From the IMG/VR virus record IMGVR_UViG_3300024339_000015: DNA of 64,000 nt, one strand, 5' to 3'. Below the pieces are notes generated by a model. It saw only the letters and a program-made list of their open reading frames with translations, did not search any database and was not told where the DNA came from. Below, one piece after another: positions 46,893-60,898 of this stretch (within the stretch, counting starts at the first letter, position 1; each line of letters begins with the position of its first letter). The position numbers and the translations under genes are program-made. The stretch comes from a virus.

Positions 46893-48026
46893 ATGTTAAA
46901 AAAATTATTAAAAACAGAGAGTACCTTAAACTCTTATTTTATAGAGAGGGAAGACGAAGTCAGAGGACTAACCTTAGGCATATTATCGGGAAACAATGTT
47001 CTATTTTTGGGCCCTCCCGGAGTATCTAAGTCACTTCTTGTAAATAGTTGGGCGTCGTTAATTAAGGACACTAACTATTTTGGATGGCTAGTGAACAGAT
47101 TCTCAACACCAGAAGAGCTTTTTGGCCCTTACTCTTTAAAAGGTTTGGAAAACGATGAGTACAAAAGAATTACGGATGGAAAACTTCCGGACTCTCATGT
47201 AGGTTTTATTGATGAAGTCTTCAAGTGTAATTCAGGTGTTTTAAATGCATTACTAAGCGTGTTAAATGAGAGAACCTTCTACAATAACGGGAAGGCAGTG
47301 AAGACCCCAATATTAACAGTGGTAGGCGCATCAAATGAATTACCAGAAGAATCTGATAACTTAGAAGCTATGTACGATAGATTTCAGTTAAAATATATGG
47401 TAAGCCGCATTCAGGAGCCATCTAATTTTTCTAAATTAATGAAATTAAAAAATGGTTTTGAAGGAAATACGACTTTAAGTTTATCCGACATTCATGCCGC
47501 AAAAGCTCAAGCAATGGAAGTTCAGATATCCGATGAAATGGTTGACCTTCTAACTGAGCTGAGAGAAAAGTTAAAGGAAGAAAATATCGACGTTACTGAT
47601 AGGACATATATGTTTTCTAAAAAATTACTAAAAGCAGAAGCGTATATGAACGGTAAATCAGAAGTAACTGAAGAAGACTTTGAAATTTTACAAAACGCAT
47701 TTTGGTCTGAACCAGGTCAGAAAAAAACTGTATACAGCACTATCTTAAACACCGTAAACCCAGCAAAGAGTAAAGTCTTAGATATTTATTATGACGCTAC
47801 GGACTTATTTGAGGATTTAATGGCAAGTAAAAAAGATAACATAGAATCTACAGAGAAGAGTATGGAAGCTGTAATTAAGTTAAAAGATGCTAAAAAATCT
47901 TTACGGGGACATTACTTAGATGCTAAGAAAAATGGACAAGACTACAAAATTGTACAGAAATACGAAAAGAAAGTAGACATCTATTTAAATAAAGTATACG
48001 CAGAATGTTTGGAGGTTTCATTTTAA
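46893..48026 (+). CDS. ravA: MoxR-family AAA+ ATPase (RavA-like)
   Basis: GPPGVSKS, STPEELFGP, FIDEVFK, GASNELP, AMYDRF. Confidence 0.9.
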   Translation: MLKKLLKTESTLNSYFIEREDEVRGLTLGILSGNNVLFLGPPGVSKSLLVNSWASLIKDTNYFGWLVNRFSTPEELFGPYSLKGLENDEYKRITDGKLPDSHVGFIDEVFKCNSGVLNALLSVLNERTFYNNGKAVKTPILTVVGASNELPEESDNLEAMYDRFQLKYMVSRIQEPSNFSKLMKLKNGFEGNTTLSLSDIHAAKAQAMEVQISDEMVDLLTELREKLKEENIDVTDRTYMFSKKLLKAEAYMNGKSEVTEEDFEILQNAFWSEPGQKKTVYSTILNTVNPAKSKVLDIYYDATDLFEDLMASKKDNIESTEKSMEAVIKLKDAKKSLRGHYLDAKKNGQDYKIVQKYEKKVDIYLNKVYAECLEVSF

Positions 48027-49571
48027 ATGAAAAGTTTATCAAAGAAAAATAGATCTATATTAAGCGAGATCAGGTCAGAAGAGTTTACTATAGACCACGA
48101 TAACTTTGATATTAAGAACTTTCAAGAGTTACTAGTAAAAAATCCTAAGATAGCCCGATTATATATCGAAGGATCAAAAGAATACCCACAATTCAAAAAT
48201 CTTCAACAAGATGTTTATGATTCATTATATAAATACGGGCCGAAAAAAGTACATGAGTCAGATATACAATTAGAGTACCTATTAAATAGTCAAATTATGG
48301 ATGCAGTAGTAGACTCTAATAAGTATAAGGAATTAAGATTAATGACAAGGCTGGATAAGGTAAATTCAGCCGTCGGGTCTGAGGTATTAGGTAATGATGT
48401 GAAAGACTTGGTTGACAAGTTAAGAGAGGAGTTTGAAGACGCATTAAATAATGCAAAACAAGCTCAGAAACAAGTAGACGATGAACAGGGACAAGGTAAG
48501 GGTGAGCAACCCGAGTCCGAGGGAGGTGCCGGAGATCAAGAAGGTAAAGGACAGGAATTCACATCTCTTGAGGAAGCACAAAAGAAACTGGAAGAGTCTA
48601 TGAAGACCTTGAACAACTTTATTGATGAACGTGAAAGACGTCAGATAGATAAAATGCTGGACAATGCTTTAAGTGAGACGAAGGAAACTTCGGACATGAT
48701 TACTAACTGGGGGTTAGAACAAGACCCAAGTTACAGCAAAGCAGGGTACCAACAAAAGTTGAAACTGATTGAAAGGCTAAAGTCATCAAAAAAGCTACAA
48801 GAAATATCTAAGTTAGCTGGAAGATACAAAAGATTAGCTGTAAACTCTCAGAAAGAAAAAATACGAAAGGGAGCAGATTCTCTATATGACATAGTTACGG
48901 GGAATGACCTGGGACGAGTGTTATCTAGCGAAGCAATGAAGTTAAGAAAACCTATATTGAAAACCTTGTTTATGAAAGAGTATCTAGAAGAATCGTTACT
49001 ACAATATGAGTACCAAGGCAAGGAAAGGAAAGGTAATGGTCCTATGATATGTTGCATTGACTCGTCTGGAAGTATGGGAGGTATCCCAGAAATTTGGGCA
49101 AAATCAGTAGCTATGGGATTGTTAGATATTTCAAGACAGCAAAAAAGATCCTTCATGGTCATACATTTCGATGCGTCAAGCAAAGAAAGTTTGCACACCA
49201 ATACTTTTGACAAAAACGGAAGTTACAATATAGAAGAGGTGCTAGACATGGCAGAATACTTCACGAGTGGCGGCACATTATTCGAGCCATCCCTAGATCT
49301 AGCAAGAGACAAGATCGAACAAGAGAAAGACTTCGAAAAAGCTGATATAGTTTTTATAACTGACGGAGAATCTACCATAAGACCAAATTGGTTATCTAAC
49401 TTTAAGAAGTGGAAGTCAGAAAAGAATGTAAAGATACAATCTATACTAATAGATATGGGCTATAATTTTCAAGGAAGCTTGGATTTATTCAGCGATTCAG
49501 TTACAAAACTGAGAGAATTGACCTCATCATCTTTGGATGAGTTAGCTACGGACATCTTTAAAAACATATAA
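48027..49571 (+). CDS. viaA: vWA-domain protein (ViaA-like)
   Basis: GNDLGRVLSSE, MIDAS IDSSGSM, GGTLF, ADIVFITDGE; follows the MoxR gene. Confidence 0.88.
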   Translation: MKSLSKKNRSILSEIRSEEFTIDHDNFDIKNFQELLVKNPKIARLYIEGSKEYPQFKNLQQDVYDSLYKYGPKKVHESDIQLEYLLNSQIMDAVVDSNKYKELRLMTRLDKVNSAVGSEVLGNDVKDLVDKLREEFEDALNNAKQAQKQVDDEQGQGKGEQPESEGGAGDQEGKGQEFTSLEEAQKKLEESMKTLNNFIDERERRQIDKMLDNALSETKETSDMITNWGLEQDPSYSKAGYQQKLKLIERLKSSKKLQEISKLAGRYKRLAVNSQKEKIRKGADSLYDIVTGNDLGRVLSSEAMKLRKPILKTLFMKEYLEESLLQYEYQGKERKGNGPMICCIDSSGSMGGIPEIWAKSVAMGLLDISRQQKRSFMVIHFDASSKESLHTNTFDKNGSYNIEEVLDMAEYFTSGGTLFEPSLDLARDKIEQEKDFEKADIVFITDGESTIRPNWLSNFKKWKSEKNVKIQSILIDMGYNFQGSLDLFSDSVTKLRELTSSSLDELATDIFKNI

Positions 49572-54731: not shown

Positions 54732-54936
54732 TAGGAACTACCTCAAGCTTATCTAGGTCATCACTATCATTTATCACGTCAGGATCATAGTCTAGCTCTT
54801 CTCACCTATCACCCTCCCCATTATAATAGTTAGAAACTTTTTCTAATCCTTTATCATCTGTACATAAAATTTTAGTTATTTTACCTGTGGAAGTATTTTT
54901 AAAAACTTTATACGTTCCATATTTTGTCATAGACAT
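54721..54936 (-). CDS. Small late protein, 71 aa via TGA 54802-54804
   Basis: TAATG-coupled to the portal gene; ...LEKVSNYYNGEGDR*EELDY... Confidence 0.7.
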
Positions 54937-56801
54937 TATACATTCCCTCTGGTTTGTCCCTTCTGTTTTTCAGAGTCATCCTGCACTCGCTGTGTTTCTG
55001 ACTGTTGGTTGTTCTGGGACTGATTACTAATATTTTTAGCTGCTTGTTCAGCTTGCTGTTGCTGTATCATCATAATCTGGTTCATTCTTTCCGTAACTAA
55101 GCCGTACGTAATTGGCATATCTGCTGCCATTTTTTGTAACCTTTGTTTCTGTTGAGCTTGTGGCAACCCAAGCAATTCGTACGAATACCTCTCAATTAAT
55201 TGAGCAGGATCAGCTGGTATTCCTTGGTTCTCTCTTGCGAGTTCTTCCCCAAATAGTTCAGCTTTCAGTCTTGTTTGCTCACTTTGAGCTGCTTGCTGAG
55301 CCCGAACATTGTACCTAGCAATAGTTATACCTGCCTTACCTTGTGCCTCGGCCGCAGCTATTTGTCTATTAGATTGCTGTTCGTTCATTATAGACTGGGT
55401 TTTTTGTAGGGCCTCTTGCTCTGCGGCATAGTTGTACCCAAACTCATCCAGTAACCTAGCATCACTAATCTTACCGGTTTGGTTTAAATTAATAGCTAAC
55501 TGTTTTGCAGAAGCATCGTCAGCCATTTTAAACTTTTTAAAGTGTACCTTTACCTTAGGATAACTTAATATTTTATTTATTTTTGTAAGTACAAAGTGAT
55601 TTAAAAAATCAGTTAGTAGCTCCCTATACGTAAGAAAATGGTTCTCAACAATACGTAACGATACGCTAGAACTTGTCCAAGAGCCACCACCTTTAATAAA
55701 CTCTACTGGAACACCTAAACTATTTATTATACTTTCTTCTAAAAATCGCATCTCTGGAGTTAGCAATAACGCTCTAGCATTACCACCTAACTCTTGGTAA
55801 CCGATAGGGATAGGAAAAACACCAATATGGTTTGGGTCTTTTTTCCACTTTTTAATTTGGTCCTCCATTTGTCCTTTCCATTTACCGAGATTCATTTGTG
55901 TGAACGGATCAAGTGTAGTTGTATTAGCAGGATGAATAGCTTTTTTTGGAACAATATGCTCATTAGCAATTGCTTCATTACCACGTCTTAAGGTTTGTAA
56001 GTAATAAATTTCTTTTAGAGCAGGCAGTATAATTGGCTTGCCCCATCCCATATCTTCTTCTGCAAGAGTAGGTCTTTTAAAATGATAAAAATTAGACTGG
56101 TCTAATTCAATTTTCTTTCTTTTCTTTAGTGACTTAAGAAAAATAGCCGGAACACCTTTTAATATAGTTTTATTTCCTGATATAATTTGACTCTTAATCT
56201 TAGGTGGTATACTATAAAAGTAAGTAGATTTTCCAGTTATAGGATTAAATTCAATATCAATATTTTCTGGAGACCATCTCACTAGATCAAAGTTATCTAT
56301 AGACTTAAAGTACTCGTCTTCTACTGACATCATTATTTCTCCAGCACCACAAGAATCACATTTTCCATGGAATTGGAATTTTTTTAGCTTAAAGTTCTTT
56401 ATGTTATCAATTAAGTCTGTATTGCCGCAACTAGAGCACTTTAAAAAACGTCTAAAGCCTACTGAAGCGGATATAAAAGCGTTGCCGTAAGTAAAATAGT
56501 CTAACCCTATGCTTATCAAAAAACTTTTAATTTTTAGTTTATCATGTAAAGCAGTGTCATACTTATCCCTAGTTGCTGAATCAATACTATTTTCATATAA
56601 AATATCAGTGATAGGGTATTCAGTAAGCTTTGTAATTATATTATTTAAGAACCCATTAGTATAAAAGAATGTTCTACAATACTTAAATAAAGTCTTTATA
56701 TTTTTTGGTATAAAATTTCTAGCTAAATCGAAAAAAGGGTTCGGGTATTTATTACCCGTCGTGCTTGTTATATCAGCATCTGAGATTGGTCTTACTGGCA
56801 T
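54936..56801 (-). CDS. Portal protein
   Basis: Size, LVRWSPENI...FYHFK...WGKPII, head-gene context, Gln-rich tail. Confidence 0.75.
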   Translation of the reverse strand: MPVRPISDADITSTTGNKYPNPFFDLARNFIPKNIKTLFKYCRTFFYTNGFLNNIITKLTEYPITDILYENSIDSATRDKYDTALHDKLKIKSFLISIGLDYFTYGNAFISASVGFRRFLKCSSCGNTDLIDNIKNFKLKKFQFHGKCDSCGAGEIMMSVEDEYFKSIDNFDLVRWSPENIDIEFNPITGKSTYFYSIPPKIKSQIISGNKTILKGVPAIFLKSLKKRKKIELDQSNFYHFKRPTLAEEDMGWGKPIILPALKEIYYLQTLRRGNEAIANEHIVPKKAIHPANTTTLDPFTQMNLGKWKGQMEDQIKKWKKDPNHIGVFPIPIGYQELGGNARALLLTPEMRFLEESIINSLGVPVEFIKGGGSWTSSSVSLRIVENHFLTYRELLTDFLNHFVLTKINKILSYPKVKVHFKKFKMADDASAKQLAINLNQTGKISDARLLDEFGYNYAAEQEALQKTQSIMNEQQSNRQIAAAEAQGKAGITIARYNVRAQQAAQSEQTRLKAELFGEELARENQGIPADPAQLIERYSYELLGLPQAQQKQRLQKMAADMPITYGLVTERMNQIMMIQQQQAEQAAKNISNQSQNNQQSETQRVQDDSEKQKGQTRGNV

Positions 56802-56822: not shown

Positions 56823-57305
56823 TTAAACTAGATACTCTCGTATCTTTAAATACCTCATGGCTTGTATACCTAAGTAATCTTCATTTAAAGGGAACGGTCC
56901 TTTCTCTGCAAGACTCTTTACCTGTTCGTAATCTCTATTAGGTTCTATTCCGACGTTAGGTGGATAAAACATGTACCCACGATCATTAAAAATATATTTT
57001 ATATACATTTTAACTTCATGAGAAAGTTTAAATTCGGGATAAATTTGTTTTATCTTATCTATTGCTTTCCACACTAACTCAGGAGTAGAACCCTCACGTT
57101 TACCGATGTCAGGGCTAATTCCATTTAAAACTAAGACTACATTTTCGAATACATCCATGTCTAAGTAAGGTGCTTTTGAGTGAAGTAGTAAGTGTTTCAC
57201 TTGTAAAAGTTGTCTTTCTTTGTCTGTCATTCTCGGATCCAAACTCATAAGAGTTTCTGGTTCCAGTACTTCCCTGTTTTCAAGTGTCTGTTCTAAGTTA
57301 TTCAT
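56823..57305 (-). CDS. Hypothetical head-region protein
   Basis: ORF track. Confidence 0.7.
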   Translation of the reverse strand: MNNLEQTLENREVLEPETLMSLDPRMTDKERQLLQVKHLLLHSKAPYLDMDVFENVVLVLNGISPDIGKREGSTPELVWKAIDKIKQIYPEFKLSHEVKMYIKYIFNDRGYMFYPPNVGIEPNRDYEQVKSLAEKGPFPLNEDYLGIQAMRYLKIREYLV

Positions 57306-57654
57306 TGCTTTCTAAAATTGGGTCAGTAGTGCCTATATGTTTATCAAGAAACTTTTTATAAATTGGGTTCATTGTGAGAGCTATTGCCATAGCAGGAGCT
57401 ATCTTTAAAGCTTTTAATCCTATACCGCTGTAATGTTTTTTAAAAAAGTTTTTTCTAACTGAATTGCCCACATTCCTTGCTCCCTCTACCTGTTTATTTG
57501 TGATAGATGCATCTAGAGGGTAAAGAATCGGAAGACTTGATATACCAGCTAAGCCTCCAGCTACTAAACTTTTTACTGGGTCGGGCAGGCTAAATCTTTT
57601 TTCTTTTTTGCCTTCGGCATACTTTACTAACATAAAAGAATGGTCAACGTTCAC
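57298..57654 (-). CDS. Protein resembling one mitochondrial-carrier (SLC25) repeat
   Basis: LVAGGLAGISSLPILYPLD...YSG...LKIAPAMAI...YKKFL. Confidence 0.55.
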   Translation of the reverse strand: MNVDHSFMLVKYAEGKKEKRFSLPDPVKSLVAGGLAGISSLPILYPLDASITNKQVEGARNVGNSVRKNFFKKHYSGIGLKALKIAPAMAIALTMNPIYKKFLDKHIGTTDPILESNE

Positions 57655-58649
57655 TATTCATCCTCCAGAGCAGCGTCCATAAAACACCCTCTTGCCACGG
57701 CTGTTAAAGGCTCCTCTACCAGCTTTATCTCACTAATATTAATAGGAAATTCCTTTTGATTAAATTGAGCTTTAAATACTTCGATAAACCCTTTAATCAT
57801 AGACGTACCTCCACCTATCACTATTGGCACTGCCTCTGGAAAATGAGGCATAGCTTCGTTTATTTCAAATTGATTAGCAATATTATCTAAGAGGTATTTA
57901 ATTAATACCTGATAATAACTTCTAATTGCGTGTACCTCTCGTTCATTGTCTTCATCATAAATTGTATTATCTGATAAGTCTATTTTATTAGATTCTTTTA
58001 TAAATTGAGCTTTAGCTAGAGGTATTCCAGTATCTAAAGAGACGTGTTGATCTATAAAATCTCCACCCCTACTAACACTAAAAGTTAGTGCAACCAATCC
58101 TTGGTACATTATAGCGATATTAGCCATTCCTGCGCCCATTGATATTGATATCCCCGTTAGATTATTATTATTATCAGATAGTCCAGCATATCCTAAAGCT
58201 TCTGCTTCTTTTATAGACCTAGCTTTGTACCCTATACTTTCAATCATGGTTGATAAAACATCTTCGTGATAGTCCACTAACGTTTCTTTATCTATTGGCT
58301 TAGATGGTACACAATAAACACATACTTCTCCGTCTTCAGAAGGTTTCCCCAGTAGTGAGGAAATAATTTCCCGTAAAACCGGTAAGGCGTCCCTTTCAGA
58401 TGGGTTTAATAGTCCCTTAGACATAGGCCTCTTTAAATCCTTATTACCAAATATTTGTGCATAGTCATAAGCGCTCTTGCCAATAACATGCAATCTTTTA
58501 TTAATCTCAACAAACGGCACATTTAATCGTTTTAGTGACTTAATAGTAGTCGGGCTTTTATCTATTGTTAAAAAAGCATTTCGTTGTATTTTTACACCGT
58601 CCTCTGATGCAGCTACGTAATTCCCTGTCCCACAATCTAATCCTTTCAT
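57654..58649 (-). CDS. Actin-fold ATPase (MreB/ParM/FtsA-like)
   Basis: GLDCGT phosphate-1, SMGAG phosphate-2, IVIGGGTS adenosine motif. Confidence 0.85.
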   Translation of the reverse strand: MKGLDCGTGNYVAASEDGVKIQRNAFLTIDKSPTTIKSLKRLNVPFVEINKRLHVIGKSAYDYAQIFGNKDLKRPMSKGLLNPSERDALPVLREIISSLLGKPSEDGEVCVYCVPSKPIDKETLVDYHEDVLSTMIESIGYKARSIKEAEALGYAGLSDNNNNLTGISISMGAGMANIAIMYQGLVALTFSVSRGGDFIDQHVSLDTGIPLAKAQFIKESNKIDLSDNTIYDEDNEREVHAIRSYYQVLIKYLLDNIANQFEINEAMPHFPEAVPIVIGGGTSMIKGFIEVFKAQFNQKEFPINISEIKLVEEPLTAVARGCFMDAALEDE

Positions 58650-58652
58650 AAA

Positions 58653-59204
58653 TTATTTACCTTTCATTTTTTTTAAATCTTTTAAAGCCTTTTTTATGTC
58701 TACCCTACTTTTTTCAAGTTTAATATCCATACTACTAGTAGTGGCCTTTTCTATGTAAGGGTTTGACCCTTTCTTTATGTCTATATGTTTTGGTACAGAA
58801 TACTTACGTACATCAACTTCCTTAGAAGTACTCGATGTTTTTTTGTCACTACTTACCACACTATTTACTACTATCGGAGAATTAGTACTTTTTTTAAACC
58901 AAAATGCTGCTATGAAAATTGATAGCAATACTAATAAAATCCTGAATTCTACTACGTAATAATATATAGGGTTTTGCACTGTTTCTATTGGAATAAGTAT
59001 TTCATCCCCAGGAAATATTTTATCGGGATTAATTCCTAAGGATTCTTTGTTTAAATGGTAAACACTACTTCAAGAAACTCCGTAAATTTCAGATATTTTA
59101 CTAACAGATTCACCGCTTCTTACTGTGTGCTGTTTAGCTCTAATATAATCAGTACCAAACAAAAACGACGTTACCAGCAGTAAGTATACTAATAACCTTT
59201 TCAT
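58653..59204 (-). CDS. Signal peptide + LysM + TM protein, 183 aa via TGA 59070-59072
   Basis: Manually translated: HTVRSGESVSKISEIYGVS*SSVYHLNKESLGINPDKIFPGDEILIP, in frame with 58653..58979. Confidence 0.88.
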
Positions 59205-59206
59205 TT

Positions 59207-60280
59207 TTATAGTCTGGAAGTGATTTCTTCTCTAATAGGCTTTGGCAAAGAAGCTAATATGTCTAAACCCTCTTCACCCCGTAACTCAGGTATAATATCA
59301 TTTCCAACTAGTGGAGTAAGTTCTGAATCAGGAATACTCCTTAGCTGTTCATGGGTAACTGTAGTACCGTCGACATCAATAGAAGCAACTTTAGGTAAGT
59401 CTAGAGTGGCCATTAACGGGTCCTCTATACCCTTACCATAAGTACCCGTTAGGGATGCTTCTTTGTCTAACTCATACATAGTTAATGCAGAAACAATAGC
59501 ACCTTTACTGTCAGCTTCCTTTAGTAAATTATCATACTTAGAACTTAATTCATCCTCATTATCTTTTAAATAGCTCTTCCTAATTTGAACATGGTTATAG
59601 AATTCAGTATTAAATATTTCTGAGTCTAAACTAGCATACTTTTCAACTGCAGTCTTATTTAGGAATACCTCGTTTAAACTAGCTGCTTTCTGTAAATTAG
59701 ATATAAACTCTAATTTCTTATCAACAGGCATTTTATAGTGATTTTTCTCGAAGTAAGATGCTGCTTTTTTTATGTTAATTGGTGTGTCAATAGGGTATCT
59801 TTCTTCCTTCTCCCATGCGTATAGGGAAGGAGACACTTCTTGGTTACCAACTTTATTTACAAAGTCAGCTTCATTTATATCTCTAATGTCAAAAACATTG
59901 TCTATATAATCTTCTGATGCGTACTTAGAAAGTCCGTCTGGAGTTTGTAATTTATGTGAAGCAGCTGCTCTTGTTAAGTTAGCTGCTGCAACTTTAATAA
60001 CTTCTTCTGGTAATGTATCTAAAGATTCAGATAGAAAAGCCATGTTCAGCTCTACAAGCTCCGGAGTGTACATAGCAAATTTATTTAATTTACCTGTTCT
60101 GGGATGCCATAAAACTAAAGCGAAGTCTCGTTCGTTTTTTGTCTGCTGCTCTTCATAGCTTGGAATATGCGCTGTTTTCACGCTATCTGACAATCCTTCA
60201 ACTATGCTTGCAAGTTTTTCTATCTCATTTGCCATGATATAGTCAACAACATCCAAGTTCATACTTGCAATTTTATTCAT
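59207..60280 (-). CDS. Head/scaffold-like structural protein rich in K-x-A motifs
   Basis: NKIAS, EKLAS, VKTA, IKVAA, SKYAS, NKTA, EKYAS, PKVAS. Confidence 0.7.
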   Translation of the reverse strand: MNKIASMNLDVVDYIMANEIEKLASIVEGLSDSVKTAHIPSYEEQQTKNERDFALVLWHPRTGKLNKFAMYTPELVELNMAFLSESLDTLPEEVIKVAAANLTRAAASHKLQTPDGLSKYASEDYIDNVFDIRDINEADFVNKVGNQEVSPSLYAWEKEERYPIDTPINIKKAASYFEKNHYKMPVDKKLEFISNLQKAASLNEVFLNKTAVEKYASLDSEIFNTEFYNHVQIRKSYLKDNEDELSSKYDNLLKEADSKGAIVSALTMYELDKEASLTGTYGKGIEDPLMATLDLPKVASIDVDGTTVTHEQLRSIPDSELTPLVGNDIIPELRGEEGLDILASLPKPIREEITSRL

Positions 60281-60283
60281 TTG

Positions 60284-60898
60284 TTAGCCCTCGTTTTTTA
60301 TTTTATTTATGTAATCGTAAGCAACATACCCAGGACATGCAGGCTTCCCGAAGTCAGCGTGACCATATATGTCTGCTTTAGTTATAGACAATTTATCCAT
60401 ATTAAGCAAGTGTTCTATCAATTTTTTTAGAGACGAGAGCTGTGCTTGAGAAGGTCCACTAGATGTTCCTTTGTGACCCTCGCCGTCAAAGTCACCAACC
60501 AACATTATTCCTATACTTGATGTATTTTGTCCCTTAGCTTGCCATACGGTATGACTTAATTGATTACAGTGGTATACATCCCCTTCTTTTGATATCCCAT
60601 AATGATAACAAAAATGGGGACACCCGTTAGGAGAGATATGATTAGGTTGGATATGGTAGTTATTGACTTGCTCTACTGTGGCATCACCAAGTTCTTGGTG
60701 CACAATTATTTTATTTATAGATGCTAGCGATCTTTTACTTCATTTTCTTGACTCGTGCCATTGTAACTCACTAATTACATTATCAATAACAAATGGTTTT
60801 TTTATTGCCTCTTCTGAAACTTTTTTATCTGGAGCTGGTATTGTCCTCTTTAGTAAGATTTTAATAAATTCTCAAACGTATGTTAGTATTATTTTCAT
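60284..60898 (-). CDS. Endolysin, type-2 N-acetylmuramoyl-L-alanine amidase, 204 aa via TGA 60872-60874 and 60740-60742
   Basis: KIIVHQ, YHYGI, SIGIMLVGDF, YGHADFGKPACPG; the first zinc-ligand strand is only complete with the upstream TGA-containing N-terminus. Confidence 0.9.

Follow-up and report, generated by a model that had tools for sequence, protein, structure and literature searches.

The mitochondrial carriers of the SLC25 family are thought to descend from a two-helix unit of about 100 residues that was triplicated, and Saraste and Walker are said to have proposed a single-repeat ancestor for them. VMC1 of Mimivirus and LncP of Legionella are complete three-repeat carriers that came from eukaryotic hosts and act in eukaryotic cells. 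The present analysis concerns a different gene. It lies in a viral DNA stretch of 64,000 nucleotides (IMG/VR record IMGVR_UViG_3300024339_000015; this whole stretch is called the window below), and its product, here named MC1rep, resembles one SLC25 repeat standing alone. VMC1 and LncP are the known non-eukaryotic exceptions in the carrier family, and a 2026 paper limits the non-eukaryotic cases to a single virus and a handful of pathogenic bacteria, each of which has full carriers (PMC13385207). In a 2026 review of the evolution of the carrier family, the single repeat is still hypothetical. Full-text literature searches turned up no paper that describes a carrier of one repeat or carriers encoded by phages. 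MC1rep and its ribosome-binding site are located as follows.

57298..57654, minus strand: MC1rep gene, a single-repeat SLC25-like protein of 118 residues (open reading frame (ORF) call, Mito_carr match, HHalign, substitution rates)
57661..57666, minus strand: GGAGGA ribosome-binding site, 6 nucleotides 5' of the MC1rep GTG, read from the sequence

The peptide quoted in the initial annotation is the translation of this ORF of 118 codons. The actin-like gene upstream ends in a TAG that shares one base with the GTG start codon (57654-57652), and the same one-base overlap is found at the homologous locus L001. The stop codon TAA (57298-57300) lies within an 8-nucleotide overlap with the next gene, whose ATG is at 57305. 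Given these overlaps with both neighbours, the actin-like gene, MC1rep and the gene of a 160-residue protein look translationally coupled. A reading of TGA as Trp extends the MC1rep frame by at most 11 residues. MC1rep is an intact gene kept by purifying selection, with a ratio of nonsynonymous to synonymous substitution rates of about 0.12 against a homologue of 68% identity. Sequence nearly identical to the window was found in seawater and marine runs from 17 studies. In three RNA libraries, contigs cover most of the MC1rep gene at 99% identity or more, and in a fourth run (X13) none could be placed; parts of the gene that are uncovered in other runs do not count as absence. Because DNA carry-over is possible, this cover is weak evidence of a real gene and no proof of transcription.

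Judged by profile comparison, MC1rep is a homologue of one stand-alone SLC25 repeat. The Pfam model Mito_carr (PF00153) matches it at 26.3 bits with an expectation value (E) of 6.1e-6, above the curated cut-off of 22.3, and the alignment pairs residues 26-105 with profile positions 5-94 of 96, which is one whole repeat. Nine of the ten family members that were scanned singly lie above the cut-off (26.3, 29.3, 45.4, 44.7, 45.5, 32.6, 44.0, 31.6 and 33.6 bits) and one fails at 13.0; the scanned members are 23-36% identical to MC1rep, apart from one at 68%. A family profile of ten sequences matches every solved carrier, from GGC1 (6e-17, the best) through the ADP/ATP carriers, UCP1 and UCP2 (1e-12 to 8e-16) to OGC (4e-5, the weakest), and all three carrier repeats were matched in both of the alignments printed for these searches, which cover two matches only. 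When a phage-only profile of 31 sequences was compared by HHalign with profiles of repeats 1, 2 and 3, probabilities of 99.2, 99.3 and 99.5% were obtained (E 2e-19 to 1e-22), over 94-98 columns. The homology put forward in the initial annotation is thus strongly supported by the Pfam match, by the nine members that pass and by the HHalign comparison.

Searches with MC1rep alone gave a more mixed picture. Among 1.84 billion cluster representatives, phmmer returned 152 proteins at E <= 0.001, most of them about 300 residues long with three matched stretches, as expected of three-repeat carriers. A minority of long matches, to residues 8-43, were set aside as BspA-type leucine-rich repeats, which are unrelated proteins and not carriers. 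Residues 8-36 (57549-57633, minus strand) resemble a unit of such a repeat and draw in proteins of 500-1900 residues with four to six stretches each; the resemblance is probably due to chance, and it inflates hit counts. A protein-language-model search pointed to Mito_carr with a score of 0.89, which is a lead only. Against the sequences of the PDB, MC1rep alone gave weak matches, with an ADP/ATP carrier at E 0.72; the acid phosphatase that ranked first there was rejected as a chance match. PHROGs holds no family for MC1rep, of lysis type or otherwise. No match to MC1rep was obtained by blastn and tblastn of deposited phage genomes, a scan of viral contigs that started from a first small alignment with poorly chosen peptide patterns found nothing, and neither did a degenerate DNA pattern for the even helix.

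The likeness to SLC25 proteins (e.g., the bovine and fungal ADP/ATP carriers 1okc and 6gci, UCP1, UCP2 and yeast GGC1) extends over the full repeat, aligned end to end. The common elements are the GxxxG motif, the Pro kink with its acid, the [YWF]-x-G junction, [KR]xxPxxA[IL], the small residues on the even helix and the basic loop. The frequencies below are column counts on a hidden Markov model alignment of 31 phage members and 120 eukaryotic repeats; the roles of the motifs are taken from the literature (PMC6349463).

GxxxG, G33 / G37: phage 100% / 93%, eukaryotic repeats 93% / 90%
Pro kink, P46: phage 93%, eukaryotic repeats 98%
Acid after the kink, D/E48: phage 73%, eukaryotic repeats 93%
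Aromatic at 75 / Gly at 77: phage 99% / 90%, eukaryotic repeats 95% / 99%
K/R at 84: phage 99%, eukaryotic repeats 57%
P87: phage 77%, eukaryotic repeats 89%
Small residue at 90 / 94: phage 100% / 90%, eukaryotic repeats 95% / 59%
K/R three residues past the acid, Px[DE]xx[KR]: phage 0 of 31, eukaryotic repeats 90%
Acid of [YF][DE]xx[KR]: phage 9%, eukaryotic repeats 63%
K/R at 81: phage 96%, eukaryotic repeats 3%

In the family the odd helix keeps GxxxG and the even helix keeps small-xxx-small, and MC1rep itself has the junction (Y75, G77) and the [KR]xxP of the even helix (K84, P87). GxxxG had been considered as a contact between subunits; this idea was dropped, as the motif belongs to an interface within the domain (PMC6349463). 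The two gate signatures are broken. In Px[DE]xx[KR], which forms the matrix salt-bridge network, MC1rep has P46 and D48, with I51 at the basic position. The initial annotation had remarked on this missing lysine, correctly, and the loss proves to be family-wide. In place of [YF][DE]xx[KR], the signature of the cytoplasmic network, MC1rep has N96-P97-x-x-K100; in the phage family, 64% of members have an aromatic residue at the first position and 45% have the lysine. Since each network retains one of its two charges, the alternate forming and breaking of salt bridges that is canonical for carriers could not operate as such. Further differences from SLC25 proteins are that MC1rep has one repeat in 118 residues, compared with three fused repeats and six helices, that it is encoded by a bacteriophage, and that the phage family has the extra lysine K81, a tag at the N-terminus and a conserved L-D-K that follows the even helix in the chain.

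From the Pfam range, the motifs and structural models, the following architecture is predicted.

57490..57576, minus strand: odd-type transmembrane helix, residues 27-55, with GxxxG (G33, G37), the kink P46-L-D48 and I51 in place of K/R (from the Pfam range and the models)
57424..57489, minus strand: basic loop and short helix, residues 56-77, ending in Y75-x-G77, the counterpart of the carrier matrix loop and helix
57346..57423, minus strand: even-type transmembrane helix, residues 78-103, bearing K84, P87, small residues at 90 and 94, and K81, a lysine peculiar to the phage family; the conserved L-D-K comes next

The loop has a net charge of +5 in MC1rep and +6.1 as the family mean, compared with +2.4 and +2.2 for the two tails. 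Carrier repeats show the same pattern, with +4.3 for the loop and +0.4 and +1.1 for the tails. As the loop is the most basic segment, the positive-inside rule suggests that it probably faces the bacterial cytoplasm, the equivalent of the mitochondrial matrix, in the orientation that a carrier repeat takes. Two AlphaFold2 monomer models, both of low confidence, place a helix at residues 25-60, a short helix at 70-75 and a helix at 78-106, an order that fits a carrier repeat.

The relatives of MC1rep were collected largely through its surroundings. The initial annotation had placed it in a block of head genes, and this setting holds, with a portal gene two genes downstream. The neighbours that matter below are these.

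54936..56801, minus strand: portal protein (PHROG 16240, E 2.5e-9), used as bait for related phages
56823..57305, minus strand: 160-residue protein, always between the portal-proximal MC1rep slot and the portal gene; its start overlaps the MC1rep stop by 8 nucleotides
57654..58649, minus strand: Volactin-family actin-fold protein (Pfam Volactin, 220.5 bits), directly upstream of MC1rep and translationally coupled to it
59207..60280, minus strand: late protein of 357 residues with repeated, positionally conserved K-[YLV]-A motifs, shared with the MC1rep tag
60284-60703: amidase endolysin, four genes from MC1rep, with one intervening gene in L007, L021 and L022

With the portal as bait, 19 related phage loci were collected. 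Divergent homologues of MC1rep were found in eight distinct loci, directly upstream of the 160-residue gene and the portal gene, and database searches added unnamed members of up to 205 residues. About 35 family sequences were inspected and up to 33 aligned; the mean identity in the family is about 25%. Every phage member inspected carries a single repeat; matches of 200-290 residues with two or three repeats are fragments of eukaryotic carriers bearing the canonical motif. In all five phage records that were counted (169-210 kilobases (kb), estimated to be 85-100% complete), there is exactly one MC1rep match per record. Where contigs were checked, the gene order is an actin-like or 350-residue protein, the repeat, the 160-residue protein, the portal and a glycosyltransferase. 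In two genomes, G001 (the record of locus L009) and G002 (the record of L015), another small protein occupies the portal slot, and the repeat gene is found about 100 kb away; the copy in G001 has an in-frame TGA. Among the viral contigs and protein databases searched, the MC1rep family is confined to a single clade of marine giant phages.

Trees were built from 31-33 phage sequences and 120-131 repeats of three-repeat proteins. The phage family forms one clade in them (Shimodaira-Hasegawa-like approximate likelihood-ratio support of 96 and 91), outside the clusters of repeat 1, repeat 2 and repeat 3, and its branch joins a short unresolved backbone. The mean scores of the phage profile are nearly equal for the three repeats (36.0, 37.6 and 41.2 bits for repeats 1, 2 and 3), and repeat 3 of SLC25A39/40-like proteins branches near the phage clade without support. 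The eukaryotic repeats in the sample are the best matches of the query itself, bacterial three-repeat carriers were left out as such, and about 100 alignment columns are too few to resolve deep forks. Judged from these trees, recent copying from any sampled repeat is excluded, and the tree cannot tell an ancestral from a derived phage lineage. MC1rep shares with VMC1 and LncP the encoding of a carrier-family protein outside eukaryotic nuclear genomes, by a virus or bacterium. Unlike them, it has a single repeat, forms a clade of its own and resides in a phage of bacteria, as the amidase endolysin and LysM genes indicate. A bolder conjecture is that a side branch of the single-repeat ancestor survives in the phage family and forms a true three-fold homotrimer, that the eukaryotic carrier arose by triplication of such a gene, and that the phage injects the protein from its capsid to open or equip the host membrane. 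We consider this conjecture improbable as a whole.

The second distinctive feature of the family lies at the N-terminus, where most members start with a conserved amphipathic peptide followed by lysines.

57613..57639, minus strand: N-terminal tag of MC1rep, residues 6-14, in a local form ending in VKYAE, homologous to the MDKAEYVFEKLA-type tag of relatives (from family N-termini)
G001 179436-187365 and 79463-79750: tag-bearing ORFs, candidate head-delivered cargo (shuffle-tested tag pattern)
G002 172976-182675 and 73714-74001: tag-bearing ORFs, candidate head-delivered cargo (shuffle-tested tag pattern)

A partial database member bridges the VKYAE form of the window and the commoner MDKAEYVFEKLA form. 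The strict tag pattern has seven occurrences in genome G001, all of them opening an ORF, and eight in G002, of which six are N-terminal. The number expected from shuffled sequences is 0.06. The tag is 12 residues long, and copies that are internal or C-terminal also occur. Its bearers are otherwise unrelated and mostly very basic (net charge +15 to +41 in G002). They include the repeat protein, a second Gly-rich two-helix protein, a DnaJ-domain protein (34.9 bits with Pfam in G001) and several proteins of no assigned family. In both genomes most of the bearers lie in one gene cluster headed by the MC1rep gene.

This arrangement recalls the internal proteins of T4, which are diverse and have only a capsid-targeting sequence in common (PMC3012670), and the paralogous ejection proteins of giant phages, which share N-termini carrying protease sites (PMC5694885). 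As in these systems, clustered and often basic proteins in G001 and G002 share a short N-terminal peptide; the tag sequence itself is unrelated to that of T4, and cleavage and packaging are putative in the present family. By this analogy, the tag may be read as a signal for head targeting, for the head protease, or for both. The initial annotation took VKYA as a sign of virion packaging. As the local form of a conserved tag on six or seven unrelated proteins where 0.06 are expected, in a T4-like pattern, VKYA lends that proposal indirect support; packaging itself is conjectural. We know of no precedent for a carrier-type membrane hairpin among capsid-targeted proteins.

Several observations at related loci touch the tag. 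In the portal-proximal slot of L009 (4200-4451, plus strand), a different Gly-rich two-helix protein carries the same N-terminal tag, and in L014-L020 the slot holds a basic protein of 92 residues (L014:4245-4523, plus strand) with the same tag and without hydrophobic helices. In L023 (3818-4528, plus strand), the frame of the repeat gene is open for 103 codons further upstream, to the volactin stop, and covers a basic region and a Gly-rich hydrophobic segment; the tag may therefore be internal in that phage.

Taken together, we lean towards MC1rep being a homo-oligomeric, probably trimeric, SLC25-like pore or carrier that is possibly delivered with the virion. The protein would form a two-helix membrane hairpin in which a basic loop with a short helical stretch joins a kinked odd-type helix to an even-type one. 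One repeat cannot close a barrel, and the genomes hold one copy each, which points to a homo-oligomer. Most simply, this would be a trimer of three-fold symmetry that rebuilds the six-helix carrier barrel around a lysine-lined cavity. The initial annotation, too, had proposed that a protein of one repeat could trimerise and would bear on the origin of the carrier family; both points are conjectures here. No member has the base of the matrix network, about 90% lack the acid of the cytoplasmic network, and K81 and K84 hardly vary; MC1rep is therefore more likely to act as a lysine-lined pore or as a simplified anion carrier than as a strict exchanger gated like the ADP/ATP carrier. The tag on unrelated, mostly very basic proteins of the relatives suggests that MC1rep is loaded into the prohead. 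It would then perhaps be trimmed by the head protease, be delivered with the DNA and act in the host membrane as infection starts.

A number of results weigh against this reading. Within the 64-kb window, the strict tag is absent, leaving only the MC1rep variant and the K-Y-A motifs of the 357-residue protein, and it is also absent from the N-termini of genome G003. The helices are moderately hydrophobic (Kyte-Doolittle about 1.4 over 19 residues), so that membrane insertion is itself a deduction. Modest hydrophobicity is usual for carrier helices. The AlphaFold2 monomers reached a mean predicted local distance difference test score of 61.8 with an alignment of 19 rows and 60.4 with 31 rows, which leaves the fold unconfirmed by structure; a Foldseek search of the PDB with the monomer model found nothing, and a VIA-align structure search gave only generic helical hairpins (Z about 6). 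The oligomer is deduced from the single repeat and the single copy. A hydrophobic hairpin packed in a capsid would be unusual, and the clade is uncultured and without a virion proteome. Prediction of a trimer from three copies and the family alignment scored 0.00 in both runs, which counts neither for nor against binding.

The strongest competing explanation holds that MC1rep is a carrier or channel made late for the host membrane and never packaged. It would insert from the inside and alter the flow of solutes or ions, and the tag would have a different role, for instance in binding a partner that its bearers share. Insertion from the cytoplasm agrees with the basic loop, and Mimivirus and Legionella are known non-eukaryotic users of carriers (cited in PMC13385207). 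The gene also stands in a block that reads TGA as Trp, as seen from the LysM gene, which needs that reading, and from the in-frame TGA of the G001 homologue. However, a tag common to very basic soluble proteins, a DnaJ protein and membrane hairpins is hard to explain by membrane function alone, and with both gate networks incomplete, classical exchange is unlikely. On balance, this explanation seems doubtful, though it deserves to be kept in mind. A lysis function is less probable still. A holin-like protein would be a small two-helix membrane protein that accumulates late, permeabilises the membrane and releases the endolysin, thereby timing lysis. MC1rep does resemble class II (two-helix) holins in its small size, two predicted helices, charged ends and late expression near lysis genes, the amidase endolysin being four genes away and, in three related loci, separated by one gene. 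Yet it has no sequence relation to holin families and no PHROG lysis-family match, its helices are weakly hydrophobic for a holin, and the deep conservation of carrier-specific motifs is not expected of one. Moreover, in G001 and G002 the gene is unlinked to the endolysin, about 100 kb from the endolysin-portal block, and its sequence features are kept. A holin role is therefore regarded as quite unlikely.

The loss of the gate charges would also suit a remnant: part of a three-repeat carrier, once captured, would now be no more than an anchor in the membrane or a structural hairpin, and would form no carrier-like barrel. Its replacement at the portal-proximal slot by a different tagged two-helix protein (L009) or by a non-membrane protein (L014-L020) points the same way. 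What makes a remnant very improbable is that cavity-facing and kink residues of importance to a barrel alone (P46, D/E48, K84, P87) are conserved at a mean family identity of about 25%, and that a genome without the gene at the portal slot still has one copy in another place. It might finally be asked whether the resemblance is due to chance or convergence, or whether the gene is an assembly fragment from a eukaryote. The weak match of the single sequence in the PDB (the ADP/ATP carrier at E 0.72) and the presence of unrelated BspA-type proteins among the long database matches (residues 8-43) could be read in this way. This has already been refuted, with profile evidence of 1e-17 to 1e-22, nine members independently above the Pfam cut-off, conserved phage synteny on contigs of up to 210 kb and near-identical sequence in the runs of 17 studies, and scarcely any weight is left to it. 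The reading of MC1rep as an oligomeric pore or carrier, possibly delivered from the head, is the one retained here.

What is new in this analysis are the copy number, the statistics of the gate residues, the relocation of the gene in some genomes and the tag family. A conserved single-repeat family makes the old triplication hypothesis testable, as a natural test of the origin of the carrier family. It raises the questions of whether one repeat can build a working barrel and what such a barrel would do without either salt-bridge gate. For protein engineering, it offers a natural, minimal and symmetric version of the carrier fold. For phage biology, a carrier-type membrane protein joins a tagged, cargo-like set in an abundant and uncultured clade of marine giant phages.

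Among the neighbouring genes, neither the 160-residue protein nor the 357-residue protein matched a family or a solved structure in Pfam, PHROGs or a structure search. In the window the latter has three K-[YL]-A copies, and its homologues keep five or six related sites at corresponding positions; it is possibly a scaffold or a protease substrate. The volactin gene is present in most relatives and absent in L007, L021 and L022/L025. The Volactin family has so far been described in haloarchaea, and literature searches found no paper linking volactin to phages. The tag had also been considered as a volactin-binding peptide. This candidate was dropped, as phages lacking volactin still have the K-Y-A motifs in their 357-residue protein, and the tag is weak in some of those that do encode volactin.

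The window comes from a large bacteriophage. Besides the amidase endolysin, it encodes DNA and RNA ligases, a multisubunit RNA polymerase that is split or fused, a reverse transcriptase of the retron type and two transfer RNAs. Between the volactin gene and the 357-residue gene lies the gene of a LysM membrane protein (58653-59204, minus strand). In the standard code a single TGA interrupts its frame, which is whole, at 183 residues, when TGA is read as Trp. This reading is needed because only then does the gene match its uninterrupted homologue of 185 residues in L001. Just upstream of the reverse transcriptase, at 46893-49571 on the plus strand, a MoxR-type AAA ATPase (bpMoxR, 155 bits) stands beside a VWA-domain protein, and the pair is kept in L001 and L003.

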